Notes: generated by a model not told the origin, from the sequence alone. A stretch of DNA of 64,000 bases from a virus (IMGVR_UViG_2786546475_000019:974-64973); one strand, 5' to 3'. Shown: positions 2,218-59,359, numbered from the stretch's first letter. A program made the numbers and translations.

Positions 2218-2232
2218 AAACCCTTAGCCGCG

Positions 2233-2263
2233 GACCGGTCCAATTTGGACCGGTCTATTTTTA
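2233..2263 (+). terminator. rho-independent terminator candidate
   Basis: GACCGGTCC-AATTT-GGACCGGTC (9-bp stem) followed by TATTTTTA, 16 nt after the stop codon. Confidence 0.7.
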
Positions 2264-33403: not shown

Positions 33404-33612
33404 GCCAAAGCCAACTTGAAGCTTACGCCAGACAACGTAAGTTTAGGCCCAAGATGGAAAATGTTCAAATTTGTGAACAGTGCGACCACTTAATACGTGA
33501 TCGCTACTGTTCCAAATTTGGCAAGTGTCCTGACGCTCAAAAAGATTTCTTTAAAGCCCTTGAACGAAGTAAATGTCCTTTAGAGAAATTTCCGTCGCAG
33601 CTCAGCGAATAG
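33400..33612 (+). CDS. small Cys-rich protein, last gene of the rightward arm
   Basis: 70 aa, CEQCDH...C...C; 3' end overlaps the convergent gene by 33 nt. Confidence 0.45.
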   Translation: MSQSQLEAYARQRKFRPKMENVQICEQCDHLIRDRYCSKFGKCPDAQKDFFKALERSKCPLEKFPSQLSE

Positions 33613-33996
33613 AATTCTAACTTGCTTAGGAGTTAACTCTAACAAACGCCCGATTTCCGAATACGTATAGTATTGAAGTCGTAAACTTACAGCCCATCGC
33701 TCCTCGACAGTTAGCCTATCTAGGTCAAACTGATCGAGGAATTCTTCTGCACTTCTTGATAATTCTTCAATATCGCCTAACGCTTCGGTATCATTGTTTG
33801 TTTGCATTTTCTTTCGACGACGGTAAGCGTCAATACCTCTCGACCGTAGTAAGGTTCTTAAGTGTGAGATGAATTTCTTTTCCTCAACTAGCTCATGATA
33901 ATTCTCCCACGCTTGTAAAAATTCCAAAGATAGCGAGCAGTCAAATTTAGTTTCAAACTCTCGCAACAAGTAAACATAATCGTCGATCCTTCGCAT
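33580..33996 (-). CDS. sigma-70 region-4-like HTH protein (minimal ECF/LuxR-type)
   Basis: LTVEERWAVSLRLQYYTYSEIGRLLELTPKQVRILFAELRRKF matches the region 4.2 pattern. Confidence 0.5.
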   Translation of the reverse strand: MRRIDDYVYLLREFETKFDCSLSLEFLQAWENYHELVEEKKFISHLRTLLRSRGIDAYRRRKKMQTNNDTEALGDIEELSRSAEEFLDQFDLDRLTVEERWAVSLRLQYYTYSEIGRLLELTPKQVRILFAELRRKFL

Positions 33997-37585: not shown

Positions 37586-38236
37586 TTAAACCATATTCAA
37601 AGTAATTGGAGGTTTGTCGCTTTTTAAAAGTTTAGCTAGCTTTTCTAACGCTCGCTTTTCAAGTTGACGAACTCTTTCTCGCGAGATATTAAGAGTTTCC
37701 CCAATAGTCTTAAGAGGAATCCCTTGGGCTCGTAGCCTCAAAACTAAAGCATCTCGACTATTTAACTCAAGAAAAGCTTTTTCTAGAGCAATAAGCTCCT
37801 CTTGCCATTCTATCAAATCCCTATCAAGACATTCTAAAGGTGTAACAGGGTTATTAAATAGCCCGTGTAAGGTTTGAAACATTGGAGCACGAGCTATAGC
37901 AGCTTTAGCTCTGTCAAGATGAGCTGGATTTGGAGATACTTTAATTAACTCCACCTTGGTTTTCATGTAAGTTATCATTCGTTGTTTCACCCACGGAGTG
38001 GCGTAAGTTGAAAACTGATAACCTTTACTAGGGTCAAATTTTTTGACCGCCTGACATAACCCACTCATTCCTTCTTGAATTAAATCGTCTAAATCAAGCT
38101 TAGAATTTTTCTTGGCAAAAGACACCGCTATCTTGATAACCAATCCTTGATTATCTAACACTAACCGATTGAGTGCTTCATCAGCTTCCTTTCTAGCAGA
38201 ATGATATTTTTGTAATAACTCGTCATTAGTATCCAC
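37586..38236 (-). CDS. sigma-70 family RNA polymerase sigma factor (group-3-like)
   Basis: region 2 DDLIQEGMSGLCQAVKKFDPSKGYQFSTYATPWVKQRM; region 4.2 TIGETLNISRERVRQLEKRALEKL. Confidence 0.85.
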   Translation of the reverse strand: MDTNDELLQKYHSARKEADEALNRLVLDNQGLVIKIAVSFAKKNSKLDLDDLIQEGMSGLCQAVKKFDPSKGYQFSTYATPWVKQRMITYMKTKVELIKVSPNPAHLDRAKAAIARAPMFQTLHGLFNNPVTPLECLDRDLIEWQEELIALEKAFLELNSRDALVLRLRAQGIPLKTIGETLNISRERVRQLEKRALEKLAKLLKSDKPPITLNMV

Positions 38237-43911: not shown

Positions 43912-44387
43912 TCCGGCTCAGTAGTTCCAACGTATCCCATACCTTTGCCAAGAATCTTGTCTTGATAATAATACCATCGGTATGAGAAGATACAGTCTTC
44001 GAAATCTCCGGCCAAGCCTTTATAATATCCAGGCATAGCCAAGTTTGGAGGAGTAAGAGGGCCACGTCGTATGTAACACGGAGATTGATAAAGATACCCA
44101 ACCCGGTTCCATACTTCATGTAAAGCTAACCCTCTCTTATCCCGCTCCTTCAACAACGCTATCATATGCTTCAAAGTCCATTGATAATTTGAATCAGTGG
44201 AACGAACCCATTGAGTTGACGGGTGATTTGCGAAGCATGGTTTACACATTCCTTGACGCCAAAGTCCAACTTCGTCATGTGCCGTTGATAACATTTGGGC
44301 ACACTCAATCGGCATTTTTGTTAAATGGTCCGTGGCCATGTAGCTAGCTGCAAGGACCGGGTCCATATCAAGGAAGAAAACATTCAC
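43881..44387 (-). CDS. conserved phage protein of unknown function
   Basis: N-terminal FFLDMDPVLAASYMATDHLTKMPIECAQMLSTAH recalls a widespread phage/virus family I cannot name with confidence. Confidence 0.5.
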   Translation of the reverse strand: MNVFFLDMDPVLAASYMATDHLTKMPIECAQMLSTAHDEVGLWRQGMCKPCFANHPSTQWVRSTDSNYQWTLKHMIALLKERDKRGLALHEVWNRVGYLYQSPCYIRRGPLTPPNLAMPGYYKGLAGDFEDCIFSYRWYYYQDKILGKGMGYVGTTEPEWLLHLKGKL

Positions 44388-44770
44388 GCCCCAAGTCCAA
44401 GCGATTTGATGGAAGCCCTTTTGAGTGCTGTCAAGGTAACAACACGTCCAAGTAGCTTGGAAAGTGTTTCTTCGAAGTTATCAAGTTGCTCCGATAATTT
44501 GTATTCGAAGCCGTTCAAAAGTATCACTTCTTCCAAGTTCTCAGAAACCCAAGAATTTAAGTCTTGGTCTTTCACAAGATACTTACCGTCTTGAATCGTT
44601 AACTTGCCATTGATAGTTGGGCCTTTCAATTCGTCTCGCCAAATTTTCACGTTTTCAGGAGCGGTTATGTTAATTGAAGCAGCTCCTGATCCTGCATCAA
44701 AGATTGTTACCCGAACGTCGTTCCCAATTGTAAATGATTGCGACGCCCAGCGTTTAAGAGTTAACGCCAT
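44384..44770 (-). CDS. hypothetical protein
   Basis: 128-aa ORF. Confidence 0.5.
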   Translation of the reverse strand: MALTLKRWASQSFTIGNDVRVTIFDAGSGAASINITAPENVKIWRDELKGPTINGKLTIQDGKYLVKDQDLNSWVSENLEEVILLNGFEYKLSEQLDNFEETLSKLLGRVVTLTALKRASIKSLGLGA

Positions 44771-47993: not shown

Positions 47994-48277
47994 TACGAGT
48001 CTCCTAAAAAGAATTTATGGCTTATTTTATCATCAAGAATGTTTTCGACTTCTTCCCAAGTTGTAATTCCTTGGTATCCTCGTCCGTCGTACTCAAGAAC
48101 AACGTCTCCAAAGGTTAAGTCCCACGTGAACTCAAGCACGGCCCACACTCCATCTGCGTACTGGCACAGAAAAGAGCCTTGTTGCAAAGGACATTTTCCA
48201 TCAAGGAAAGAAGCGGCTTGCTCTGTAAAATCGGAGTCTTGGTTTTTAACAAAGTCAAGTAATGTATCAAAGTTCAT
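47993..48277 (-). CDS. hypothetical protein
   Basis: 94-aa ORF. Confidence 0.5.
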   Translation of the reverse strand: MNFDTLLDFVKNQDSDFTEQAASFLDGKCPLQQGSFLCQYADGVWAVLEFTWDLTFGDVVLEYDGRGYQGITTWEEVENILDDKISHKFFLGDS

Positions 48278-48281
48278 TTTT

Positions 48282-48650
48282 TTATCCTTGTGGAAAATAA
48301 TGATTTAAAAAAGGTTCCAAGGCCCGGGCACAACGAGCACATGAGTGTTCCCAGTCCCCGTTATCACTTAACTCCCCGTGGCCTACTTGATACGTGCCGT
48401 TAGTATGGAGCGTCACTTGGCAACGTCCGCCACACTCAATACCGATACTCTTGTTGTGAGATTTGATAATCTCATCAGCGATCTCGTAACACGGAGCTTC
48501 AACAACAATGTACGTATCAGGGGCGTTGACCATTACTACTACTACTGCGTAAGATTTACGCCCCATTCCCCGCTCATTAACACCTAGCCGCCACTCCAGA
48601 GAGCAGGCTTTTTCTTGAAGAAAACGTAATCGTTTCAAAGCTCCATTCAT
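48282..48650 (-). CDS. hypothetical protein
   Basis: 122-aa ORF. Confidence 0.5.
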   Translation of the reverse strand: MNGALKRLRFLQEKACSLEWRLGVNERGMGRKSYAVVVVMVNAPDTYIVVEAPCYEIADEIIKSHNKSIGIECGGRCQVTLHTNGTYQVGHGELSDNGDWEHSCARCARALEPFLNHYFPQG

Positions 48651-48850
48651 ACCACGCTCCTTGTTGCTTTAGTTTCATCTCCAAGGCCCACGACAGGAAC
48701 TATCAATTCCCCGTTTGGGACAGGGACCGTGACTTCTTCTGGCAATTCAAACCAGTAGTTATAGTGTCGTCCACAAGGGAATTCCACTTTGATAGCTACC
48801 TTAGCTACTGAATCCCTTGTACTTTCTTTGATTCCTTCTTGGGTAATCAT
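48647..48850 (-). CDS. hypothetical protein
   Basis: 67-aa ORF, ATGA overlap downstream. Confidence 0.45.
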   Translation of the reverse strand: MITQEGIKESTRDSVAKVAIKVEFPCGRHYNYWFELPEEVTVPVPNGELIVPVVGLGDETKATRSVV

Positions 48851-48910
48851 TGTTAAACTTTCTGTAAAGTGAGTATAGTCCGTAAATAAACACTAATAAG
48901 TAAAGCATCC

Positions 48911-48944
48911 TGCTCCCCTTTGCTCCCCTTTGCTCCCCTTTGCT
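48911..48944. repeat. 10-bp tandem repeat TGCTCCCCTT x3.4 (AAGGGGAGCA on the - strand)
   Basis: exact units at 48911, 48921 and 48931 in a 101-nt intergenic gap. Confidence 0.9.
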
Positions 48945-48951
48945 TCATTCG

Positions 48952-49341
48952 CTAGTTAAGACCTGGAAATGTACCCATGATACTTCCAAAGTGTTCCAAA
49001 CCCCCTAGCCCCAAGTAGTACCGCTCCACATCGATATCTAATAAATGATAGTGTGCGTTGTACAGCTCTAAATAATCTAAATATCGTTTGATAATTTCAG
49101 CTTGTGTCTCTCCTTTACAAAGAGACTCACGACTTATTGCATATACGTAACGATATATTCCCTTATTCTTAGGGACTGGGTTCTCCCATAAATGTTGTTG
49201 CACGTAATCTACGCCTAGAAGCACTAGGCTGTCAACGTACGTGCAAGTATCAGCGTCCATCTTATGTCCAATGATACTGAGATGTAGCTTTAGGTCCATC
49301 TCCAAAGCCCATGGACCTACTTGCTTTTGCCATTCGGTCAT
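48952..49341 (-). CDS. hypothetical protein
   Basis: 129-aa ORF, GGAGAG RBS. Confidence 0.5.
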   Translation of the reverse strand: MTEWQKQVGPWALEMDLKLHLSIIGHKMDADTCTYVDSLVLLGVDYVQQHLWENPVPKNKGIYRYVYAISRESLCKGETQAEIIKRYLDYLELYNAHYHLLDIDVERYYLGLGGLEHFGSIMGTFPGLN

Positions 49342-49508
49342 TTGTCTCTCCGTACAGGTAGATGGTAATATTGGCCGTGTTCTTCAAACAAACATCTGAT
49401 AAAAATGTTCACTTTTGACATTTCTGTCCACGGCCCTTTAGAGGCCATCCAAATTACAAAAAGTCCGGCCCCCAATATTAAAGCCATTGATAAAGCTTTG
49501 TGTTTCAT
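49338..49508 (-). CDS. small membrane protein (56 aa)
   Basis: start moved to ATG 49508, behind the conserved GAAAGGAATATCATG of cassette B1; hydrophobic LSMALILGAGLFVIWMA. Confidence 0.45.
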   Translation of the reverse strand: MKHKALSMALILGAGLFVIWMASKGPWTEMSKVNIFIRCLFEEHGQYYHLPVRRDK

Positions 49509-49527
49509 GATATTCCTTTCTAAACAA

Positions 49528-49578
49528 GTAAACAACGGTCCACGCTCCATGATACTTGGAGCGTGGTACGTTGGCTAC
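49528..49578 (-). promoter_or_regulatory. intergenic stem-loop cassette B1
   Basis: - strand GTAGCCAACGTACC-ACGCTCCA-AGTATCA-TGGAGCGT-GGACCGTTGTTTAC; starts 9 nt after the upstream stop. Confidence 0.7.
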
Positions 49579-49586
49579 TCTTACCG

Positions 49587-50147
49587 TTAGGTAGACTCAA
49601 ACGTTACGATATCCGGGTCTTGTAGCCCTCCGCCTAAGTCGGAAGCTTTCAACTCAAATTCGTAATTAACTCCACGGAACCCCGTGAAGTTATCACCGAC
49701 CCAGCCGTCGAAAGTGAACTCAACCCGCACCGTGACAGTAGGAGCGGGAATAGCTACTTCCTCAATGAATACGTCGGTCCAGCCTTGACCGCCAGAACCT
49801 CCATTAAGCGGGTTAGTGTTGTTTCCCCAATTCATAGGAAATTTTATAGTTTCCGTCACGCTCACGGGACCATTTGGGCCTTCTACCACGACAGTGTGGT
49901 CAACCATTTGATAAGTTCTCACGTGAACTGCAAGCCACTCCAAACGATTGTCAACCCACCAAGTTGCAGTTAAGTTAACTTTTGTAACGTCCCCGGCTGA
50001 GACTTCCGTGACTCCCATTGAGGCGGAGCTGTAGTAGTCTCCGGAAGTGCCGTGCACCGGGTTGTTGCCGCCTCCGCCTACTTGACCGTAAGCAGTTGTT
50101 GCTACGAGCAACAGAATAGTAAACAACACAAGTGATAAAATACGCAT
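49587..50147 (-). CDS. secreted protein
   Basis: signal-like MRILSLVLFTILLLVATTAYGQ; AAGGAG RBS. Confidence 0.55.
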   Translation of the reverse strand: MRILSLVLFTILLLVATTAYGQVGGGGNNPVHGTSGDYYSSASMGVTEVSAGDVTKVNLTATWWVDNRLEWLAVHVRTYQMVDHTVVVEGPNGPVSVTETIKFPMNWGNNTNPLNGGSGGQGWTDVFIEEVAIPAPTVTVRVEFTFDGWVGDNFTGFRGVNYEFELKASDLGGGLQDPDIVTFEST

Positions 50148-50176
50148 AGTCTCTCCTTAAAAGAGTAAAGATTTGT

Positions 50177-50188
50177 GGTCCGTGGACC
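50177..50188. promoter_or_regulatory. palindrome GGTCCGTGGACC (identical 12-mer at 2566-2577)
   Basis: lies in the 42-nt gap between two - strand genes. Confidence 0.5.
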
Positions 50189-50189
50189 A

Positions 50190-50981
50190 TCATTTAGTAG
50201 GACGACACAATGCTCGTGTCTTCCAGTAGTTGAAGCTACGTTCCAACTCTTTGACGAACGCTTCCGCATCCATCTGAGTATCAGTGCCGCCGTCGCTGCC
50301 GAAGTGGTTGTGCAGCAACGTTTCAGGTTTCATCGGAGCATTCAGGTCTTCTAAGTCCACCCCAGCGTTGACTGAGATGATATTCCACCGCCCGTAGGCT
50401 TGTTCTCCGCTCTCATAGAGCACGTCTCGATGATAAAGGACGACTTCGACGTGGCAGGCGGCGGCCTTATTTACGCCGTCCAAGTATTCATGCCGACGTG
50501 GCGACTCGCCGTCACGTCGTGGCTTATACTCCACGATCAAAGTATCATTGTTCCGAAGCTTACGAATAGGGCAATAAACCCCGTTCGCGTCAATCGGAAC
50601 GATGATAACTCCGTCTCTATAGCCGGGACGCTGCTCGTGAAATCGGGCTTGTACCTGTTCAACGAGCACTTCGTCTGAGAACTTCCAGTGGGAGAACTCA
50701 CTATTGGCTGTCTGCCGACTAACGAAGTCGTGGACCGCTACGTCTGGAGCTGGGTTGCTCCAGTTCTGTTGCGTAACCTGCAACACGGTGGGTTCTCCAT
50801 TAGGGTGGATCGCCGCTTTGTCCCTTGGCTCGTAGTCATAAATGAAGGTATCTCCGTCCGAGGATTGAAGGGCATTACGCCCCGATCCATCTTCTTCTGC
50901 GTCGCCGTAGGGGACGTAGCCGTTTTTAAGAAGTATGATAAATTCGTCGTTACTTAACATTTGTTGGTTGTCAGTTTTCAT
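50190..50981 (-). CDS. hypothetical protein
   Basis: start moved to ATG 50981 behind AACAGGAGAGCGAG, the same RBS block as at 51730. Confidence 0.5.
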   Translation of the reverse strand: MKTDNQQMLSNDEFIILLKNGYVPYGDAEEDGSGRNALQSSDGDTFIYDYEPRDKAAIHPNGEPTVLQVTQQNWSNPAPDVAVHDFVSRQTANSEFSHWKFSDEVLVEQVQARFHEQRPGYRDGVIIVPIDANGVYCPIRKLRNNDTLIVEYKPRRDGESPRRHEYLDGVNKAAACHVEVVLYHRDVLYESGEQAYGRWNIISVNAGVDLEDLNAPMKPETLLHNHFGSDGGTDTQMDAEAFVKELERSFNYWKTRALCRPTK

Positions 50982-50998
50982 CTCGCTCTCCTGTTTAT

Positions 50999-51283
50999 TT
51001 AACAAGCTTTCCATTCAGCAATAAGTTTAGCAGCTTCGGGTGAGACTTTCACCCACTGTTTCACTGAAATGTCCTCATGGGTTTCAACAGCTGCCGTGAT
51101 ACGTGTGTTGGTCTTCGGACCATTAGCCGCTAAGCCAAAGAGTCCACCGCACTCAGAACTCCAGTAAAGGACCATTCGAGCGTTTCGCAATTTGATAGGC
51201 TTTCCAGCTTCGGGGTCTTTGTCCGCCATACCGATTATAACGGCTCGTCCGTTTTCCCCGCAACAAACTAGATACATCGACAT
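50999..51283 (-). CDS. hypothetical protein
   Basis: 94-aa ORF. Confidence 0.5.
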   Translation of the reverse strand: MSMYLVCCGENGRAVIIGMADKDPEAGKPIKLRNARMVLYWSSECGGLFGLAANGPKTNTRITAAVETHEDISVKQWVKVSPEAAKLIAEWKAC

Positions 51284-51284
51284 T

Positions 51285-51629
51285 TCAGTCTCCTCTTATC
51301 AATTGATAAATTTCTTTGTAAGTATGTACTGGCATATTATACTTGTCCGCTATATCCTGCCAGTTCTCTTCCCACCAGCTAAAAGAATGACACTGACCCC
51401 CAACTTTCAACACTCCAAAGTCTTGGTTGACTTCTACTTTGCGGCCGTGTAAAATTCCGAGTGTTATCAGTTTGCCGTAGCCGTAGCCGTAGCCGTAGCC
51501 GTAGCCGTCGCCGTCGCCGTAGCCGTCGCCGTAGCCGTAGCCGTAGCCGTAGCCGTCGCCGTAGCCGTAGCCGGTCCCGTAGCCGGTCCCGTAGCCGGTC
51601 CCGTAGCCGTCGCCGTGGTTACTTAACAT
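51285..51629 (-). CDS. protein with an N-terminal Gly-Tyr(-Asp/Thr) repeat region
   Basis: GDGYGTGYGTGYGTGYGYGDGYGYGYGYGDGYGDGDGYGYGYGYGYG followed by a ~60-aa non-repetitive domain. Confidence 0.55.
   Translation of the reverse strand: MLSNHGDGYGTGYGTGYGTGYGYGDGYGYGYGYGDGYGDGDGYGYGYGYGYGKLITLGILHGRKVEVNQDFGVLKVGGQCHSFSWWEENWQDIADKYNMPVHTYKEIYQLIRGD
51474..51616. repeat. hexanucleotide microsatellite (GCCGTA/GCCGTC/GCCGGTCCCGTA variants) encoding the GY repeats
   Basis: about 143 nt of near-perfect 6-nt periodicity. Confidence 0.9.
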
Positions 51630-51640
51630 TTGATAGTTCC

Positions 51641-51730
51641 TTATAAATGATCAACTTTGGTCTTTGCTTCACGCGGACCGATGTACGGTTCCAACGTAAA
51701 TAAGTCATTGATATTTTCACATAGTTTCAT
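51641..51730 (-). CDS. tiny coupled ORF (29 aa)
   Basis: ATGA overlap with the TraR/DksA stop; preceded by AACAGGAGAGCAAG, nearly identical to the RBS block of 50190..50981. Confidence 0.35.
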   Translation of the reverse strand: MKLCENINDLFTLEPYIGPREAKTKVDHL

Positions 51731-51933
51731 CTTGCTCTCCTGTTTGCTCGCTTAGCGAGTCGTTGAGTTTCAGGATCGTCCGGAAGTATCACTAGCGATC
51801 CTGCGGTCTTATGGCCGTACACCATGTACCCTGTAGCACGCTCCGTGGTGCTACAGGTTGCACACGTCATTGTGTGCGGAAGTACCTCTAAGCGTTCACT
51901 ATCAATTTGTGTTTTGCAGTTTATGCAGTTCAC
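51727..51933 (-). CDS. TraR/DksA-family C4 zinc-finger protein
   Basis: CINCKTQIDSERLEVLPHTMTCATC. Confidence 0.55.
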   Translation of the reverse strand: MNCINCKTQIDSERLEVLPHTMTCATCSTTERATGYMVYGHKTAGSLVILPDDPETQRLAKRANRRAR

Positions 51934-52178
51934 TCTTGCTCCTTCCAGAACTTGATATTTTTGACAACCCCTTCGGCGAGGTCAGCGATAGAATCTATCA
52001 CTTCTCGCTCACAACCGGGAATGGTGTAGAAGTAATTAAACTCCCCACCCTCGGTGAAGGTAACAAGTTGCGTGAAGCGACCCTTGTTTATCTTGGACAA
52101 GTGCCAGTAGACTTCGCGAACGCCTTCGTTAAGAAAAATGTAACAGGGAGTTTCGCCAATGACTTTAGTTTCGTACAT
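51930..52178 (-). CDS. hypothetical protein
   Basis: start moved to ATG 52178 behind GAAAGGATTATCATG (same RBS block as the B cassettes). Confidence 0.45.
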   Translation of the reverse strand: MYETKVIGETPCYIFLNEGVREVYWHLSKINKGRFTQLVTFTEGGEFNYFYTIPGCEREVIDSIADLAEGVVKNIKFWKEQE

Positions 52179-52188
52179 GATAATCCTT

Positions 52189-52518
52189 TCAGATTGAGTA
52201 AGTGCGAGATTGAAGTGCTTGTTTCGGTTCACGGCCCTTGTACTTAGTTCCAGGCTGCTCGAACCACGTTCCACGTGAGATGTGAATATCCAAGTCAAGA
52301 TATTCATACTTCGGGACGTTATAATAGTCTGCTAAGTCGTAAACGTCCAGATTATCAAGATCTGGAATTGGTCGCAACGTAATATGCGACAGTACGTAAG
52401 CCGCCACATTACGTTGCTTACGCTTGAGCGTTGGGTTAGCCGCTTGGACCGTGGCCCACAGCCGCTCAAAAGACTCTAGAGTTGGACACAACTCAATGAT
52501 AGATACTCTCTTAGACAT
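52189..52518 (-). CDS. hypothetical protein
   Basis: start moved to ATG 52518 (ATGTCTAA overlap with the upstream stop). Confidence 0.45.
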   Translation of the reverse strand: MSKRVSIIELCPTLESFERLWATVQAANPTLKRKQRNVAAYVLSHITLRPIPDLDNLDVYDLADYYNVPKYEYLDLDIHISRGTWFEQPGTKYKGREPKQALQSRTYSI

Positions 52519-53062
52519 TGGCCACGGCTCCCATCTTAAGAACCTTGGCACACATTGCCAACAATTTGGCGTGGTGTCGGGGAGCTTCAACATGGTTCTC
52601 GAACCATGAATCATCCGCCCCACATGGTAGCTTGACTCCCCCGGCTCGGAAGTATTGATAATTGTGCCGTGCGACACGGGCATTGTCCCGTGCATTGAGC
52701 AAGCACTCCCGTCTCGTGGCCCGTGGCGGACGAAGATGGTCGAATTTCATCAAAAGAACGCTATCAATGGAAGATTTCCCGCATCCTGCGTCTCGCAGCG
52801 TGCGAATATCATCCGCTGCGGCTTTGCGAGCGGTTCGAACCCACTCAATATGGGCCAGAGCTTCCCGATAAAGGTCGATCTGTTCGCTGATCCAGTAGCC
52901 AAGGGTGGCCTCAAAATCATGGAGAGTTACTTGATAGTCCAGAGTTCCGACCCAACGTAGCGGGGTGCCTGGAATGTAAGCTTTGTAGTCGTGGCCGGAA
53001 GCCTCGACCTCGACAGGCAAATCGTTGACGTAGAACATTCCAAGAGGTTGCATAGCTTTCAT
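52511..53062 (-). CDS. hypothetical protein
   Basis: start moved to ATG 53062 behind cassette B2. Confidence 0.5.
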   Translation of the reverse strand: MKAMQPLGMFYVNDLPVEVEASGHDYKAYIPGTPLRWVGTLDYQVTLHDFEATLGYWISEQIDLYREALAHIEWVRTARKAAADDIRTLRDAGCGKSSIDSVLLMKFDHLRPPRATRRECLLNARDNARVARHNYQYFRAGGVKLPCGADDSWFENHVEAPRHHAKLLAMCAKVLKMGAVANV

Positions 53063-53087
53063 GATAATCCTTTCAAGTGAGAAAAAA

Positions 53088-53134
53088 GTAAACAACGGTC
53101 CCTGCACCTCACGAGTGCATGGTACGTTGGCTAC
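53088..53134 (-). promoter_or_regulatory. intergenic stem-loop cassette B2
   Basis: - strand GTAGCCAACGTACC-ATGCAC-TCGTGAG-GTGCAG-GGACCGTTGTTTAC, then TTTTTTCTCACTTGAAAGGATTATCATG. Confidence 0.7.
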
Positions 53135-53144
53135 TGGCTTGCTA

Positions 53145-53570
53145 CTAAACAATTGCCCTCTGATTCAGTTCAGGAACAACAGTGTGAGCTATCAATATCC
53201 CAAGCTTGACGCCCCAGTTGACGAGTCTTTGATAAGCTTCGTCCAGCTCCGCCAACGTCTTATATTTAAGGGTCAGCCCGCTGATTAGCAAAGGCTCACC
53301 GTCGCGAGTCGCTCGCAACACGCATTTCCCGTCCCCGGTTGTGATAGAAAAGCTGCATTTATCAGCTAGTCGTAGCTGCGGTATGCCAACCATGTTCAAT
53401 TTTCGTCGAACGTATTGGCGAGCCGCCTGGGAGTCCGTAGCATACGTGACCTTGAGGTGCTCAATAATTTGTTGAGTGTCGGACGTGCCATACAGCTCCT
53501 GAAGTCGCTGATCGGTCTCAAACATCAGAAGTTGCTCGATGAAATTCCAAGTCGTGTGATTGTTAATCAT
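53145..53570 (-). CDS. hypothetical protein
   Basis: 141-aa ORF behind cassette B3. Confidence 0.5.
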   Translation of the reverse strand: MINNHTTWNFIEQLLMFETDQRLQELYGTSDTQQIIEHLKVTYATDSQAARQYVRRKLNMVGIPQLRLADKCSFSITTGDGKCVLRATRDGEPLLISGLTLKYKTLAELDEAYQRLVNWGVKLGILIAHTVVPELNQRAIV

Positions 53571-53591
53571 GATAATCCTTTCAAGAAATTA

Positions 53592-53638
53592 GTAAACAAC
53601 GGTCCATGCACCTCATGGGTGCACGGTACGTCAGCTAC
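53592..53638 (-). promoter_or_regulatory. intergenic stem-loop cassette B3
   Basis: - strand GTAGCTGACGTACC-GTGCACC-CATGA-GGTGCAT-GGACCGTTGTTTAC. Confidence 0.7.
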
Positions 53639-53645
53639 CAACTAC

Positions 53646-54014
53646 TTATACTTCAGTCCGCCACTTAAGCCAGAATTCCAACATAGCGTTAAAGTTGTGG
53701 TAAGTCCCGTCGTCTTCGACGTTATGATAATCTTCAAGGTCCAACGGGGCGAACTCCTCAAGTGTCTCACGCAACGGTCTGACGGTGTGTGAACCATTCG
53801 TTGAGTAAGAATATGAAACTTCCGTTAACGCCTCACATCGCACAATAAAGGTTTCGAAAGTTTTCTCAAGCCGAGATTGGAGCCTGCGATCTTTGATTTC
53901 TCGAACTATCAGTACCGGGGTTCCTGGTCCTTTGACCAATAACCCTTTCTTGATTTCGATTCGGTTCTCTTTGACTTCTCGACAGATTTTGAACAACATA
54001 GACTTAGCTTTCAT
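53646..54014 (-). CDS. hypothetical protein
   Basis: 122-aa ORF behind cassette B4. Confidence 0.5.
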   Translation of the reverse strand: MKAKSMLFKICREVKENRIEIKKGLLVKGPGTPVLIVREIKDRRLQSRLEKTFETFIVRCEALTEVSYSYSTNGSHTVRPLRETLEEFAPLDLEDYHNVEDDGTYHNFNAMLEFWLKWRTEV

Positions 54015-54038
54015 GATAATCCTTTCAAGTGAGAAACA

Positions 54039-54085
54039 GTAAACAACGGTCCGGGCTACCCGTGGGCAGCACGGTACGTTGGCTA
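54039..54085 (-). promoter_or_regulatory. intergenic stem-loop cassette B4
   Basis: - strand TAGCCAACGTACC-GTGCTGCCCACGGGTAGCCC-GGACCGTTGTTTAC. Confidence 0.7.
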
Positions 54086-54093
54086 TTGATAGA

Positions 54094-54113
54094 CCTAGGC
54101 CCGAAGGCCCAGG
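54094..54113 (-). promoter_or_regulatory. stable hairpin with a UUCG tetraloop in - sense (CCUGGGCC-UUCG-GGCCUAGG)
   Basis: 8-bp stem; the single non-Watson-Crick pair is G-U in - sense but A-C in + sense. Confidence 0.55.
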
Positions 54114-54168
54114 ATTAAATCCAGATTGTCAAAGATCAAAATTATCATTTGTGTCCCGCCACTGGCGG

Positions 54169-54284
54169 AAATGATATGATAGCTTACAGACCTACGGTCA
54201 ATCTATTCTATACTTAATATCGGCAATTGGGAAGTAAGAAAATAGATTATTTTTGAAAATAATCAAAACTTTATCATATCATTT
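54169..54284. promoter_or_regulatory. operator pair AAATGATATGATA (54169-54181) / TATCATATCATTT (54272-54284) bracketing the palindrome GATTATTTT-TG-AAAATAATC (54245-54264)
   Basis: exact reverse-complement 13-mers; the identical pair occurs at 59227/59347. Confidence 0.7.
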
Positions 54285-54285
54285 T

Positions 54286-54627
54286 TTACACTGTTTCCTT
54301 CTCAATGATAATCCCATTGATTTCGAATTGGTTCGTGACCATATGCCAATGCATATCATTATACAGGAACCGATAGCAAGTTCTCCGATACCTGAACTCG
54401 TGACTAGGCCCATGGGCCGTGTACTCGGGTGTAGGCCATTTATCAATGTACCCTGTTAGAGACACGGACCTTTCATCTGGAAAAAAGAATTCAGGCTCTT
54501 GGACCTTGATCAATTCATCGTTGGACAAGTTACGGAGCCAAAGCCTATCTTCATCAAGATGATAATTTGCCTGCCACTCAAACCAAGCTTCAAACTCAGT
54601 CATGAAACAGTATGGGTTTCTGTTCAT
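54286..54627 (-). CDS. hypothetical protein
   Basis: start moved to ATG 54627 (GGGAG RBS, 1 nt after the methylase stop). Confidence 0.5.
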   Translation of the reverse strand: MNRNPYCFMTEFEAWFEWQANYHLDEDRLWLRNLSNDELIKVQEPEFFFPDERSVSLTGYIDKWPTPEYTAHGPSHEFRYRRTCYRFLYNDMHWHMVTNQFEINGIIIEKETV

Positions 54628-54628
54628 G

Positions 54629-55396
54629 TTAACTCCCAAGAATATAAAGTGCTTCAACCACGGAAGATCGAATCTCGCCAGCAGATTGATAGATTCGATA
54701 CTCGTACTTTTCAGTCCATTCCTGAGCTTCCAAGTATGTGTTCTTGTAGTGATTGATAACAACAGTGCCTTGTCGGTCCTTGGCCCACGAAACAATTTCC
54801 TCAAGCGAGATCAGATCGAACCCTTGTGTCTCATCGTAAGGCGGGTCCAAGTAGAATAACGCATCGACACTATCATATGAAGCTAGCTTCTTCCAGTCCC
54901 AATTCTCGATTTGCCACTTGCTAATACGAGCACGAAGCAGGGGCCAGATTCTCATTTTACTGGCTACATTCGGCTGCTTCTGTGAGAAGTTGCGAGCGTA
55001 GTTAAGCCTCCGCCCCAAGTAAGACATAACCGCTGTCACGTACCACTTTGCTGCACGCTTCACGGGGTTACTTGATAGCTGCCAAGTCTTTTTGCAATGC
55101 AACCATTCTTCTTCGGAAGAAGGATGATACTTTTTAAGTTCTTCGACAAGCTCCTCGTAGTGGTTACGGAACGCTCGATAGAAGTCAATGATCCCGGAGT
55201 CTTTATCATTAAACACCATGTACGGGAACTGAGCCACGTTCAATGATACCATTCCTGTCCCGCCAAACACGTCAATAAATTTCTTGTGCGTGTCTCGCAT
55301 GTGGTTCAGAATAGGAAGAATATGTTGCAAGGCCCGTGCCTTAGACCCTATCATTCGAAACGGAGCTTCACGTTTCTTGAAGTCTTTATCAGTCAT
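54629..55396 (-). CDS. dam: Dam-type N6-adenine DNA methyltransferase
   Basis: MIGSKARAL...FIDVFGGTGMV (SAM binding) and YLDPPY catalytic motif. Confidence 0.8.
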   Translation of the reverse strand: MTDKDFKKREAPFRMIGSKARALQHILPILNHMRDTHKKFIDVFGGTGMVSLNVAQFPYMVFNDKDSGIIDFYRAFRNHYEELVEELKKYHPSSEEEWLHCKKTWQLSSNPVKRAAKWYVTAVMSYLGRRLNYARNFSQKQPNVASKMRIWPLLRARISKWQIENWDWKKLASYDSVDALFYLDPPYDETQGFDLISLEEIVSWAKDRQGTVVINHYKNTYLEAQEWTEKYEYRIYQSAGEIRSSVVEALYILGS

Positions 55397-55581
55397 CCTA
55401 GTATCTCCAAGAGAACATTTAATTGGTCAGCACACGTCCGATACCCTTGTCGCTCGGCTTCGCGACGGTTTTCAAACTCCTGACCTTCTGGAGACCCATC
55501 AACTATTTCAGGTCGAGCCCCTTTCTCTCGCCACTTCTCAATCAACGCTTCTAAAACTTCTCGCTTGATACTTTTAGTCAT
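55393..55581 (-). CDS. small hypothetical protein
   Basis: start moved to ATG 55581 (GGGAGGAAAG RBS, ATGA overlap). Confidence 0.45.
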   Translation of the reverse strand: MTKSIKREVLEALIEKWREKGARPEIVDGSPEGQEFENRREAERQGYRTCADQLNVLLEILG

Positions 55582-55976
55582 ACGACTTTCCTCCCGTGTG
55601 TTAATGTAATTGTTTCGCCAGTTTGGGTAGTCTCTGTCCACGTCTTAGACCACGGACCTCGAATTGATAGCATCCACCCTTTGCCCTCGACCTTATGGTT
55701 CAGCTCGTGAGGTGTGTACTTTACTCGGAACTTTTTATACTCCCGTGGCCAGCCGTAAATACAGTCAAAGTCGTCCGGTTTCCGAACAAACTCCGTGGCC
55801 CATCCCATTAGGAGCATGGTCCATGCATTGAACGCATGGGTGTGGAAGTTCCGTTCAGCAGCACCGCCCTTCACTCGAAGCAGAACGATTGAGAACAAAC
55901 ATTTGATTTCAATGATAAAGAACCCTGTTACGTTGGACTTTGGTCCACCATCTTTACGCCATGATAATAACCTCAT
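55578..55976 (-). CDS. hypothetical protein
   Basis: 132-aa ORF. Confidence 0.5.
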   Translation of the reverse strand: MRLLSWRKDGGPKSNVTGFFIIEIKCLFSIVLLRVKGGAAERNFHTHAFNAWTMLLMGWATEFVRKPDDFDCIYGWPREYKKFRVKYTPHELNHKVEGKGWMLSIRGPWSKTWTETTQTGETITLTHGRKVV

Positions 55977-55979
55977 AGT

Positions 55980-58586
55980 TTAAGTTGCCCTTTCTCCCTT
56001 AATCGTTTCCCTTTTAACACCGTCTGGAGTTTCAACAAAACGAAACCCGTTGTCTTTCGGAGCTTCATACGAGAAGCGAACATTGTAGATACATGTCTTT
56101 TGCATCTCGTCAATAGCTATCAAATACATTTCCGCTAGGTTCTGTTCGAACTTCTTACGATTTGCTCGCCCCCCGTCGTCCATGTAGTTCTTATACAGAA
56201 GTTGAAGCTCCACTTTTGATCCAGGCTGTTCTTGGAGCACGGACCGTGCAAAGAGTTCAACGTCGGTTCGGTTCAAGTCCGCAGCTTGCTCTTTATCAAC
56301 CGTATCCACAACAGGAACATTCAAACGCCCCTGAGTTGGCGGTATTTGATACGCTAACAAGGCATACAGAAACGCGGGAGCTTGAGCTTCCAGTTGTTCC
56401 AAAAGAAGTTTCTTTGGAATAACTTTATCTGGCTTCTTGGGTACATTGATAACCGTGATTCGGGTGTCTCCGGGAAGTATCGGACAGAACTCACGATTGT
56501 TCGCGGTGTGAATCCAATGCGACGTATTAGGTATCATGTAAGCGGGCTTGCCTTTTGTGTTGACTGAGATTACTTTGGACGTAACATAGTCTTTAACTTT
56601 TTGATAAACAGTGGAGTCCGAGTTCAAGTTAATCTCCTCAAGAACGCAAAGCACCGCCCCAGCAAGTTCACTGTTGAACGAGCTGACTAACGCGTTCTCC
56701 GCTCGAACGACACCGGGACTAAACAACAATGATAATGCTTCATGCAAAATCGACTTCCCGGTGTCTTGCTCCGTGGAATACAAAAACAGAAACGGCAAAG
56801 GTTCAAACGGTTGTTGTATCAATGACGCGACCCACGCAAACAGATAGTCGTGTCCTTTGCAAATACCGTTCTCCGTGAACCAATTATCCTTACGAACGTA
56901 TTGATCTAGAGAGTGTCCGATATGGTCCAGAATCTTCATCCAAAGATCAAAGTTTCCTTCTTCTGGAGTGTGTCGCAGTTGAGCAGCTCCCCGATTCCAT
57001 AAACGATTACCCGGATATTCAGACTCAAAGGGTCGTGAAACAATGTTCCAGGGCTTCATGATAGCTTCACCCTGCATCTGCTGAATCTCTTTAGTGTTCA
57101 TTCCTTGGCTTTTGAGACCGAGCGTCAGGTTGGCGATCGGTTCTTCGATCCAACCGTTATCATGCGTCTCAATAGCCCAACCGGCGTCCACGCTACCCAT
57201 AATCATGTGACGAATCTGCGTATTCGTGTCCACGTCATACGGGCTACCAGTACGAGACTCTTTTATCACTTTCAACCAACGTGTTCCTTTTGCGATCCAA
57301 CCTTCAATGCCGCCTGGGTCGCCTTTGATTTTCGGAATCTCAATTTTAAGCTTGTTTTCCTTTAGCTGAGTGACAGTTGCTTGACGAGCTATCAATACTT
57401 CGTCAATGGCTTGCATTTCATGTTGCTGGAAAAGCTTAGTCAATTTATGAGCAGGAAGCACCATTCCTTTTTTATCATCTTCTAACGCTCCTGAATCTTT
57501 CACCAAGGTCCAAAGCGGTGGAACATAATTCAAATACGTGCGAGTCCATCCGTTCTTCGTGGTCCACGATTCATGTTCCTTGGCTTCGTTGCCATATCGG
57601 TACACGGCCCATGCTCCGTGTGGAAGCGGATACGCGAAGCAGTTCTGTTTGTGGAGATCAGTTCCGTCACTGATAGTCTGGAAATCGCCTTTAAACCCGA
57701 GTTCTTTGGAAGCTTGCTCCAATAGTTTAGTGTGCGTGATAAACATCTTTCCTTCCGCGTTCCAGTAACCAAACGCGGAGTTGTTATTCATCCACTCAAG
57801 CAAACGCTCATGTTCTTCTTCAAGCGTCACGGACTGTTTGTGCTTGATAATTTCTTCCATACGGTCATCAGCATAAGAGTGTTTCTTCTTACCGCTCACG
57901 ACGCCAATATGATCTCGCCATCCCAGCGGCTCTTTGATATGGGCCTCAGCTTCCTTAATAATTTGAAAGCCGTTCTCTCCCGTTTTCCGTGACCATACCC
58001 ACATATTACAACCGAAAACATCAACTGCAAGGTCAAAGTCGAAACCAGTCTCAAGACATAGTTGACTCAGAACGCCGCGAGCAAGAGCAGCGTGTTCTGC
58101 CCGACTTGTCGTAGTGATAAGGTCTTCAAAGAAAACATATAAGTGGTAGCCAGCTCCACTTTTAGATCGTTGTACTCGCACCCAAGGTACGTTACACGCT
58201 CGTTGTTGAATATCAAGTAGATCAGTCTGCGTTAGCTTGTGCTTGTGCCGAGCTGAGTGGCCCACGATACCGTCAAAGTCGAAAGCAACATATCGCGAGA
58301 TGCATTGCCCAAAGTCCCACCCCGATAAACCAACCATTGAGGCGTGATCTTCCAGGCTGAACTTGATATTTCCTTCATCGTATTTGCCATCAATTCGAAA
58401 ATTCTTCCAGACTTGAACACCGTCAGTCCACTCCCGGTAGGTCCGACCTTTGTATTCCTTATCAACAGGCTCGCCGCCATCAGCGGCTACGTTTACTTGA
58501 ACTTCCATTGTAGGCGAGTATAACGCCGCCATGTGGGGTTCTGCGTTATCACGCAAGAATCGTTCTAAAGCTTCACTTTTACGCAT
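55980..58586 (-). CDS. AEP primase-polymerase fused to an SF3 (D5/P4-type) helicase
   Basis: VAFDFDGIV and SKSGAGYHLYVFF (AEP motifs); Walker A STEQDTGKS in the C-terminal half; start set to ATG 58586 (GAGG RBS), track start 58592 is TTG. Confidence 0.8.
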   Translation of the reverse strand: MRKSEALERFLRDNAEPHMAALYSPTMEVQVNVAADGGEPVDKEYKGRTYREWTDGVQVWKNFRIDGKYDEGNIKFSLEDHASMVGLSGWDFGQCISRYVAFDFDGIVGHSARHKHKLTQTDLLDIQQRACNVPWVRVQRSKSGAGYHLYVFFEDLITTTSRAEHAALARGVLSQLCLETGFDFDLAVDVFGCNMWVWSRKTGENGFQIIKEAEAHIKEPLGWRDHIGVVSGKKKHSYADDRMEEIIKHKQSVTLEEEHERLLEWMNNNSAFGYWNAEGKMFITHTKLLEQASKELGFKGDFQTISDGTDLHKQNCFAYPLPHGAWAVYRYGNEAKEHESWTTKNGWTRTYLNYVPPLWTLVKDSGALEDDKKGMVLPAHKLTKLFQQHEMQAIDEVLIARQATVTQLKENKLKIEIPKIKGDPGGIEGWIAKGTRWLKVIKESRTGSPYDVDTNTQIRHMIMGSVDAGWAIETHDNGWIEEPIANLTLGLKSQGMNTKEIQQMQGEAIMKPWNIVSRPFESEYPGNRLWNRGAAQLRHTPEEGNFDLWMKILDHIGHSLDQYVRKDNWFTENGICKGHDYLFAWVASLIQQPFEPLPFLFLYSTEQDTGKSILHEALSLLFSPGVVRAENALVSSFNSELAGAVLCVLEEINLNSDSTVYQKVKDYVTSKVISVNTKGKPAYMIPNTSHWIHTANNREFCPILPGDTRITVINVPKKPDKVIPKKLLLEQLEAQAPAFLYALLAYQIPPTQGRLNVPVVDTVDKEQAADLNRTDVELFARSVLQEQPGSKVELQLLYKNYMDDGGRANRKKFEQNLAEMYLIAIDEMQKTCIYNVRFSYEAPKDNGFRFVETPDGVKRETIKGERAT

Positions 58587-59226: not shown

Positions 59227-59359
59227 AAATGATATGATACATGGTTTTCAAAATACTTGAAAATATTTTCAAAATACGGGGCAATCCTGCCCGGTTTTAT
59301 TCGTAGCTATAGGGGGAAAGTAGACTGTTTTACTTTCCAAAACGACTATCATATCATTT
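59227..59359. promoter_or_regulatory. operator pair AAATGATATGATA (59227-59239) / TATCATATCATTT (59347-59359) bracketing module A2
   Basis: exact 13-mers identical to the 54169/54272 pair. Confidence 0.7.
59257..59322 (+). promoter_or_regulatory. promoter-like module A2: palindrome TTGAAAATATTTTCAA, then TTTTCA-N6-GGGGCAATCC-N11-TATTCGTAGCTATAGGGGGAAAGT
   Basis: same 29-nt spacing from GGGG to CTATAGGG as A1 and A3. Confidence 0.6.

Follow-up and report, generated by a model that had tools for sequence, protein, structure and literature searches.

Five RNase III sites in the early region of phage T7 (R0.3, R0.5, R1, R1.1 and R1.3) work by processing a polycistronic transcript between its genes. 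They are paralogous intergenic copies on the coding strand, one of which (R0.3) stands before the first gene, and they form hairpins of about two helical turns with an internal loop. In T4-type phages, promoter-early stem-loops (PeSLs) are repeated composite intergenic cassettes that end in a downstream Shine-Dalgarno (SD) sequence and ATG; they cluster around genes without homologues (ORFans) in a variable genome region, and the identity between copies may reach the gene start (PMC2839356, PMC4122927). In Cluster K mycobacteriophages, SAS/ESAS elements place the consensus GGGATAGGAGCCC (at most two mismatches) before start codons, with 17-nt imperfect inverted repeats around a 4–13 bp spacer, and their function is still unverified (PMC3203893, PMC12699233). 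Here, we describe the B cassette of an uncultured, marine, tailed phage, which joins a hairpin to a ribosome-binding site (RBS) block and occurs four times (B1 to B4) on the minus strand of a 64,000-nt stretch of DNA (IMGVR_UViG_2786546475_000019:974-64973); this whole stretch is called the window, and positions are counted from its first letter. The functionally closest known systems are the T7 RNase III sites, and by organisation the closest are the PeSLs and SAS/ESAS. The B cassette is likely to be a functional cis-acting RNA leader or boundary module; more tentatively, and by analogy, it may be an mRNA module with a hairpin that a double-strand-specific RNase cleaves, in the manner of the T7 early sites.

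The genes of the minus-strand block are tightly packed, and every copy occupies, on their coding strand, a complete intergenic gap (75–82 nt). Cassette B1 (49509..49586) is the entire intergenic region between the gene of a 186-amino acid (aa) signal-peptide protein and that of a 56-aa membrane protein. Its 51-nt hairpin (49528..49578) is matched by a hairpin covariance model at 69.4 bits over 49526-49580, and its RBS block, GAAAGGAATATCATG (49506..49520), contains the SD core AAGGA, a 5-nt spacer and the start codon (49506-49508), with a U-rich spacer (49521-49527) ahead of the block. Cassette B2 (53063..53144; hairpin 53088-53134, RBS block 53060-53074) lies between 141-aa and 183-aa genes, B3 (53571..53645; hairpin 53592-53638, RBS block 53568-53582) between 122-aa and 141-aa genes, and B4 (54015..54088; hairpin 54039-54086, RBS block 54012-54026) opens the array and occupies the 3′ end of 271 nt of non-coding sequence. 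The pattern ACGTACC-N16-30-GGACCGTTGTTTAC has four sites in the window (49528-49571, 53088-53127, 53592-53631 and 54039-54079), compared to 0.00 expected and none in 100 shuffles. An earlier note on this DNA had counted four copies, with B1 about 3.5 kb from the others, and the B1–B2 spacing of 3560 bp agrees with it. Further, when both strands of the window were searched unfiltered with the covariance model, only B1 to B4 were found (66–75 bits), the next sense-strand match scoring 11 bits; the same model detected no further cassette in the approximately 4.6 kb beyond the window's high-coordinate end, as represented by the contig variant L003.

The minus strand of B1 (49586..49506) reads TAA-CGGTAAGA-GTAGCCAACGTACC-ACGCTCCA-AGTATCA-TGGAGCGT-GGACCGTTGTTTACT-TGTTTAGAAAGGAATATC-ATG, exactly as it had been parsed before. 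Across the copies, the order is a stop codon, 7–10 nt, a 47–51 nt hairpin, a 5–11 nt U/C-rich spacer, the block GAAAGGAWTATC and the ATG. The hairpin has 21–22 rungs in all four copies, or about two turns of A-form RNA, though the upper stems and loops differ. From its base, the lower stem consists of GUAG/UUAC with an invariant G.U, an invariant C.U mismatch and CAACG/CGUUG; above it is an invariant 2x2 internal loop, UA opposite AC (U.C and A.A), that lies 10 rungs below the apical loop. The upper stem begins with CC/GG in every copy and has 8–10 pairs up to a loop of 4–7 nt. In B1, it consists of 10 perfect bp (49557-49566 with 49540-49549) and the loop AGUAUCA (49550-49556), with the 3′ side of the internal loop at 49538-49539. 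The earlier note had reported a perfect 8-bp stem with flanking blocks; the stem is real but was understated, as CC/GG extends it to 10 pairs and the blocks pair with each other, making one interrupted 51-nt, 19-bp hairpin. B2, B3 and B4 have 17, 18 and 14–18 base pairs, with one upper-stem mismatch each in B2 and B4 and none in B1. Accordingly ranked, B1 is indeed the best-formed copy, both by hairpin-only minimum free energy (−26.9 kcal/mol, compared to −17.8, −21.1 and −21.1 kcal/mol for B2 to B4) and by z-score (−7.4, compared to −2.6, −3.9 and −3.6).

The RBS block reads GAAAGGA(U/A)UAUC before the AUG (GAAAGGAUUAUC-AUG), with a single change among the cassettes, and the centroid structures of B1 and B3 leave the RBS unpaired. 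Tandem G.A pairs are absent and the SD stays free in the centroid structures, so that a kink-turn, a thermometer and an SD-sequestering fold were ruled out. An ATG at 49550, within the B1 hairpin, opens an in-frame 70-aa open reading frame (ORF) with no Shine-Dalgarno sequence. Read from GGACCGTTGTTTACT, the ATG is in phase in B1 and B2 but not in B3 and B4, which shows the cassette to be non-coding and rules out a coding role for the conserved blocks.

The four copies have diverged very unevenly. Only 3 of the 29 basal columns vary, whereas the apical part (upper stem and loop) varies in 18 of its 24 (Fisher p = 2.4e-6). This strong non-uniformity argues for selection on the cassette; a recent duplication that simply decayed would not have this pattern. 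Selection acts on the hairpin base, and pairing at the top is maintained. In particular, 93% of the in-register cells form standard pairs, compared to 31–54% when the 3′ partners are slid. Three upper-stem pairs are changed on both sides, and a fourth double change was found by hand at the top pair (A-U in B1, C-G in B4), where a one-column register shift of B4 hides it in the alignment. The sole internal substitutions of the lower stem, both in B3 (C to U and A to G), pair as G.U in the sense strand and abolish the lower stem in the antisense fold. Eight G.U pairs lie inside the sense stems, while the antisense strand would gain three wobble positions only, all of them terminal. We assign the hairpin to the sense RNA because it is co-oriented with the genes, it is fused to translation starts, and the wobble pattern favours that strand. 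A double-stranded DNA operator was ruled out, since the variable 20–27 bp 'spacer' is itself palindromic with compensatory changes.

The conservation belongs to the cassette and not to its neighbours, as had been claimed. An all-against-all BLASTP comparison of the flanking proteins has a best E-value of 0.026, and the genes downstream of the B cassettes are therefore not paralogs; the product of the 141-aa gene is an ORFan that retrieved only itself among 5.8 billion proteins. Together with the uneven divergence among copies, this places the selection on the intergenic element.

According to the tentatively proposed mechanism, the minus-strand accessory-gene block would be transcribed as long polycistronic RNAs, and the B hairpin would direct a double-strand-specific endoribonuclease, in the simplest case the RNase III of the host, and so serve as a signal for both processing and stability. 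A cut at or beside the internal loop would split the long transcript between genes, so that the upstream message would keep a protective 3′ hairpin and the downstream message would receive a defined 5′ end about 30 nt before an unstructured, strong RBS. Each flanked gene could gain its own stability and yield, and B4 would trim the leader of the first gene, like T7 R0.3. Bacterial RNase III substrates span about two helical turns (approximately 20–22 bp, coaxial stacking allowed); an internal loop confines cleavage to one phosphodiester, and a protective 3′ hairpin stays on the upstream RNA (PMC1540722). The B hairpins have the two-turn length in all four copies and, by anatomy only, the internal loop, and all of them lie in minus-strand gaps among co-oriented genes, with B4 closing the 271-nt leader. 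Overall, the two-turn hairpin, the internal loop and the unstructured strong RBS are consistent with an RNA boundary that makes RNA ends or unequal expression.

For comparison, the five intergenic regions of the T7 early genes were folded, with cleavage coordinates of the T7 annotation. Besides their occurrence in several copies, their placement and their two-turn fold, the T7 sites resemble the B cassettes in having conserved basal flanks (ACUCAAGG ... CCUUUAUGAU) beneath a 9–12 bp top that differs between copies with compensation, and in the position of the upper stem, which ends 27–36 nt before the next start codon in T7 and about 31–38 nt before it in the B cassettes. The two have no sequence similarity. 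The T7 internal loop is larger and asymmetric, whereas the B loop is small and symmetric (2x2), with G-C pairs on either side, and the B cassettes have the more regular lower stem. If the hairpins are processing sites, then T7-style segmentation of early mRNA would be used by an unrelated lineage of uncultured marine phages, and the element would be a compact natural 'insulator plus strong RBS' part.

Several results weigh against RNase III processing. The covariation is weak, with four paralogous copies and an observed score that was reached by 26 of 500 shuffles, and the fold energy has no preference for the sense strand, as the antisense z-scores of B1 to B4 (−7.7, −4.0, −2.9 and −2.0) are similar to those of the sense strand. 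In E. coli, a G-C pair beside the scissile bond suppresses cleavage by RNase III, but not its binding (PMC1540722). G-C pairs are present on both sides of the B internal loop, so that by E. coli rules the hairpin could even be a binding-only site. Moreover, the near-invariance of the lower stem and internal loop exceeds the known sequence need of RNase III, which suggests a more sequence-specific partner. Finally, pattern, covariance-model and relative-contig searches did not find the cassette in any relative, and hence there is no orthologous comparison.

The layout of the B cassette is that of a PeSL: a stem-loop, an SD and an ATG, with ORFans flanking it, in a region that is absent from relatives (PMC2839356, PMC4122927). 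It differs from a PeSL in that a PeSL is defined by a strong sigma-70 early promoter and has short polyG/polyC terminator stems, whereas the B cassette has no promoter of fixed spacing and has an irregular 21–22 rung helix with a conserved base. In particular, TTTACT and TATCAT are separated by 14, 20, 16 and 19 nt in B1 to B4, and TAGCCA-17-TATCAT is found in B1 only; because no −35/−10-like pair keeps its spacing (14–20 nt), the cassette is not a promoter, whether host sigma-70, extracytoplasmic function (ECF)-like on either strand, or antisense by way of GATAAT, the complement within the RBS block. With SAS/ESAS, the B cassette shares a conserved RBS-containing block a few bases before the start codon of some non-structural genes, and the imperfect inverted repeat with variable spacer that precedes about half of the SAS copies. 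In contrast, the sequence is another one (GAAAGGAWTATC), the conserved arms are 14–15 nt long with 20–27 nt between them that are themselves paired, and the host group differs, as does the number of copies (10–20 SAS per genome, compared to 4–5 here). According to the ESAS authors, an mRNA hairpin has little support there, as departures from the repeat are uncompensated, while pairing in the B cassette is kept by compensatory and wobble changes.

Transcription termination, DNA recombination and single-stranded DNA sites each offer another account of the same hairpins. As weak intrinsic terminators or attenuators, they would step transcription down along the array, and the RBS block would merely be the start of the next gene. 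A lenient terminator scan picks up the upper stems of B1 and B3, the full hairpin is followed by U-rich sequence (B2 UUUUUUCU, B1 UUGUUUAG, B3 UAAUUUCU and B4 UGUUUCUC), and the similarly placed PeSL stem-loops of T4-type phages were shown to terminate transcription (PMC2839356). But ACCGUUG, and no U run, follows the GC-rich upper stem; next to the U-rich tail, the helix consists of a weak A-U/G.U stem broken by a mismatch, and past the full hairpin the U run is uninterrupted in B2 alone. A helix of 21–22 rungs with a conserved internal loop is atypical of terminators, B4 sits in an odd place for one, directly downstream of a likely promoter and before the first gene, and the clear terminator that the phage does have, at about 2232-2262 (plus strand) behind the first plus-strand gene, combines a perfect GC hairpin with a UAUUUUUAU tail. 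With its GC-rich stem not directly before the U run, a canonical intrinsic terminator was ruled out, and even weak termination is quite unlikely. PeSL-like DNA homology patches, through which recombination would insert, delete and swap the flanked ORFans, are unlikely as well, although they could coexist with an RNA function. They would suit a cargo of small genes without homologues, in a region absent from the nearest relatives, and the PeSL layout; B2 and B4 also share a 32-nt identity, ATGAAAGCTA, that runs 10 nt into two unrelated coding regions and looks like a recombination footprint. Yet the sigma-70 promoter that defines PeSLs is absent, and recombination or gene conversion would homogenise the whole cassette, while the hairpin top has instead diverged with compensation. 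No shuffling event is seen in the available copies, which are clonal, as 8 contigs from several Tara samples are 100% identical across B2–B4 (1.4 kb), and the contig variants L003 and L004 differ only by small indels in coding repeats, with none at the cassettes. It is extremely improbable that the element is a site of attC-type (integron) recombination in single-stranded DNA, or that it forms some other DNA hairpin, for example an origin or a hairpin promoter. Its palindrome is indeed imperfect, with unpaired bases and a top that varies above a conserved base, it is located between promoterless small genes, and its CAAC...GTTG is reminiscent of attC R''/R' cores. The match to those cores is incomplete, however (AGCCAAC fits RYYYAAC at 6 of 7 positions and GTTGTTT fits GTTRRRY at 5 of 7), and both are in mid-stem and not at the base; no tyrosine recombinase is encoded by the approximately 50 ORFs scanned with Pfam, which are not every ORF; and the element is tightly coupled to the RBS after it, the copies being identical into the start codon, which links it to the 5′ end of genes and not to the 3′ end. 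Hairpin promoters of the N4 type have 5–7 bp stems and 3-nt loops.

The phage also encodes a candidate for a more sequence-specific partner, a 128-aa CsrA-domain protein (44384-44770, minus strand; Pfam PF02599, E = 1e-9) with a C-terminal extension of about 80 aa that has no match. Its residues 3–61 align to RsmE/CsrA structures, the key RNA-binding arginine (E. coli R44) is kept as R45, and the protein retrieved only itself in a word-based search of 5.8 billion proteins. The cassette could then be the operator of a small translational regulon, in which a phage RNA-binding protein would recognise the lower stem, the internal loop and/or the SD block and repress or activate four (or five) genes; the SD GGA would be the target of the phage CsrA/RsmA homologue, which might also contact the other invariant GGA, 25–31 nt upstream at the 3′ foot of the upper stem. 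The invariance of the basal duplex, the internal loop and the 15-nt SD block beside a freely varying top is the signature of sequence-specific recognition, and this distance between the two invariant GGA triplets of each cassette is within reach of a CsrA dimer. Moreover, the SD block AAAGGAU agrees with the ARGGAU core of CsrA sites, and the leader of the csrA-like gene itself has two GGA motifs and the same UUAUCAUG start context. The CsrA/RsmA leaders of glgC and hcnA are alike in having two GGA, one in the Shine-Dalgarno sequence, at a distance that a dimer can bridge, but a 20-bp hairpin is not a feature of CsrA sites. The upstream GGA of the B cassette is base-paired at the foot of the upper stem and not in a loop, none of the apical loops contains GGA, and the preceding bases vary (GU, GG, AU and CC in B1 to B4), so that there is no A(N)GGA site. 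A GGA is part of almost any Shine-Dalgarno sequence and is thus not diagnostic, the GGA-NN-TATC-ATG context is also present at genes without a hairpin, and no other candidate RNA-binding protein was found among the approximately 50 ORFs scanned. On balance, such an operator is doubtful. Near the cassettes, a perfect tandem repeat (AAGGGGAGCA) x3.4 followed by GGAUG (48911-48944, minus strand) lies in the 101-nt gap between a 129-aa and a 67-aa gene; with four GGA in about 40 nt, it recalls a CsrA-titrating RNA or a CsrA-controlled leader. In a further, very unlikely version, the cassette would be the cis-element of a private, post-transcriptional phage regulon, the CsrA-like protein, alone or with host RNase III, would time the translation of the ORFans, and the 48911-48944 repeat would be a decoy; if true, this would be the first report of a phage CsrA homologue that has its cognate targets in the same genome. 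The literature has not established the ligands of phage CsrA proteins (PMC11879866), and the cassette and the csrA homologue together offer a testable entry to phage CsrA targets, which is the only possibly notable part of the system.

The search for the element elsewhere returned no second occurrence. The exact cassette pattern has 0 matches in the viral_contigs collection and two chance matches in the other collections, inside a Pseudomonas transporter gene and a kdpA-like gene; a looser pattern has 22 loci in viral_contigs, none of which fits the covariance model. A megablast of 48000-56000 against phage records gave no match. Rfam gave no match in the whole window at the gathering threshold, and its E-value mode over 49300-54400 gave only noise (E of at least 2.9; mir-370, antisense, on B2). 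Judged by these comparisons, the B cassette is private to this phage lineage and, by sequence, outside PeSL and SAS/ESAS. On present evidence, it is a lineage-private example of a familiar class, the repeated intergenic hairpin-plus-RBS cassettes of phage early and accessory regions, and introduces no new principle. As a putative RNA module, it would mark the ORFan genes that the phage treats as a co-regulated set.

Parts of the cassette also occur separately. The 15-nt RBS block GAAAGGAWTATCATG is found five times in the window, compared to 0.33 expected; the fifth copy, GAAAGGATTATCATG (52176..52190, minus strand), is where the earlier note had placed it, before ATG 52178 of an 82-aa gene; it lacks a hairpin and shares bases with the TGA stop of the gene upstream. 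The repeat of this block is real, but it is less specific to the cassettes than it had looked, as GGA-NN-TATC-ATG is also the start context of other genes of this phage, without the hairpin. The pattern GGACC-N3-10-TTTACT has five matches, compared to 0.2 expected, and the fifth is an element at 50148..50189 (minus strand) with the hairpin GGUC-CACG-GACC, GGACC-N7-UUUACU, a U-rich spacer and an SD, before the 186-aa gene. Perhaps it is related to the B cassette, either as a decayed form or as an ancestral one, in which case the 186-aa gene would have cassette-like elements on both sides.

Upstream of B4, the non-coding region 54089..54285 (minus strand) has an A/T-rich stretch and the promoter-like TTCCCA-17-TAGAAT (54233-54205), which are consensus matches only. 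The latter is bracketed by 11-nt inverted repeats (ATGATATGATA and TATCATATCAT) about 90 nt apart. The region further contains two short GC hairpins, CCGCC-AGU-GGCGG and CCUGGGCC-UUCG-GGCCUAGG, and two strong promoter-like sites in the opposite direction (10/12 matches). From its sequence features, it is likely the start of a transcription unit and a regulatory hub.

A 72,328-bp contig from the Tara Oceans metagenomes (ERZ909121, k127_854715) contains the window, whose coordinates equal those of the contig record minus 1024. The contig is filed in a metagenome-assembled genome named 'Acidobacteria bacterium' (locus tags CL489_063xx); the genome looks like a complete phage, and the Acidobacteria label is probably a binning artefact. 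A plus-strand gene block encodes a GpA-type large terminase, with ORFs of up to 1199 aa, and a minus-strand block extends from about 58.6 kb down to 34 kb, where the first genes, a DUF5906 primase-helicase and a Dam methylase, are followed by about 50 mostly small genes. Known phages are very distant, with terminases less than 25% identical and the primase matched over at most 21% of its length, while hundreds of 60–75 kb metagenomic contigs carry a primase that is about 40% identical (nearest homologue 43%). Three relatives that were compared, with primases 39–43% identical, have only the replication module in common with this phage; neither the small-gene region, nor the B cassette, nor any analogous repeat was found in them, and a separate related-locus search with the primase as query gave no match.

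The 186-aa protein encoded upstream of B1 (49587-50147, minus strand) begins with MRILSLVLFTILLLVATTAYGQ, which is signal-peptide-like as judged by eye, and the 56-aa protein encoded downstream (49338-49508, minus strand) has, again by eye, a single hydrophobic helix. Gene callers differ on the latter gene: it has no call in one contig, and in L004 it starts at the ATG within the hairpin (70 aa, not 56). Short metagenome contigs stop at the cassettes; L039 spans 54034-53055, and L040 stops at position 53134, where the B2 hairpin begins, which indicates that the cassette repeats break assemblies. Both effects, a gene start called within a hairpin and contigs broken at repeats, call for caution in annotation and assembly.

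Elsewhere in the window, a sigma-70 family factor with regions 2 and 4 (E = 5e-18 and 1e-12) is encoded at 37586-38236 (minus strand), and a second small ORF (33580-33996, minus strand) has a weak region-4 match; the phage sigma factor probably redirects the host RNA polymerase for part of the phage programme. Within the small-gene block, a 68-aa ORF (51727-51933, minus strand) contains CxxC...CxxC and has a weak zf-dskA_traR match in one contig's annotation, making it a possible binder of the RNA polymerase secondary channel. A small protein encoded at 51285-51629 (minus strand) has a long Gly-Tyr / Asp-Gly-Tyr repeat, with a 6-nt tandem array (GCCGTA x23.8) at 51474-51616, and its length is 114 or 96 aa in two otherwise near-identical contigs (L003 16958-17302 and L004 16961-17251). 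On the plus strand, the canonical terminator within 2230-2334 reads GGACCGGUCCA-AUU-UGGACCGGUC before its UAUUUUUAU tail and is directly followed by three 20-bp direct repeats, AATATCAACTAGCTGCACGCAA; a 32-nt direct repeat is present at 263-325; and a 53-nt motif with a GGGCAATCC...GCCC hairpin (2618-2670 and 59262-59314) lies upstream of two plus-strand genes, one of them parB. These plus-strand repeats may be promoters or ParB/iteron sites.

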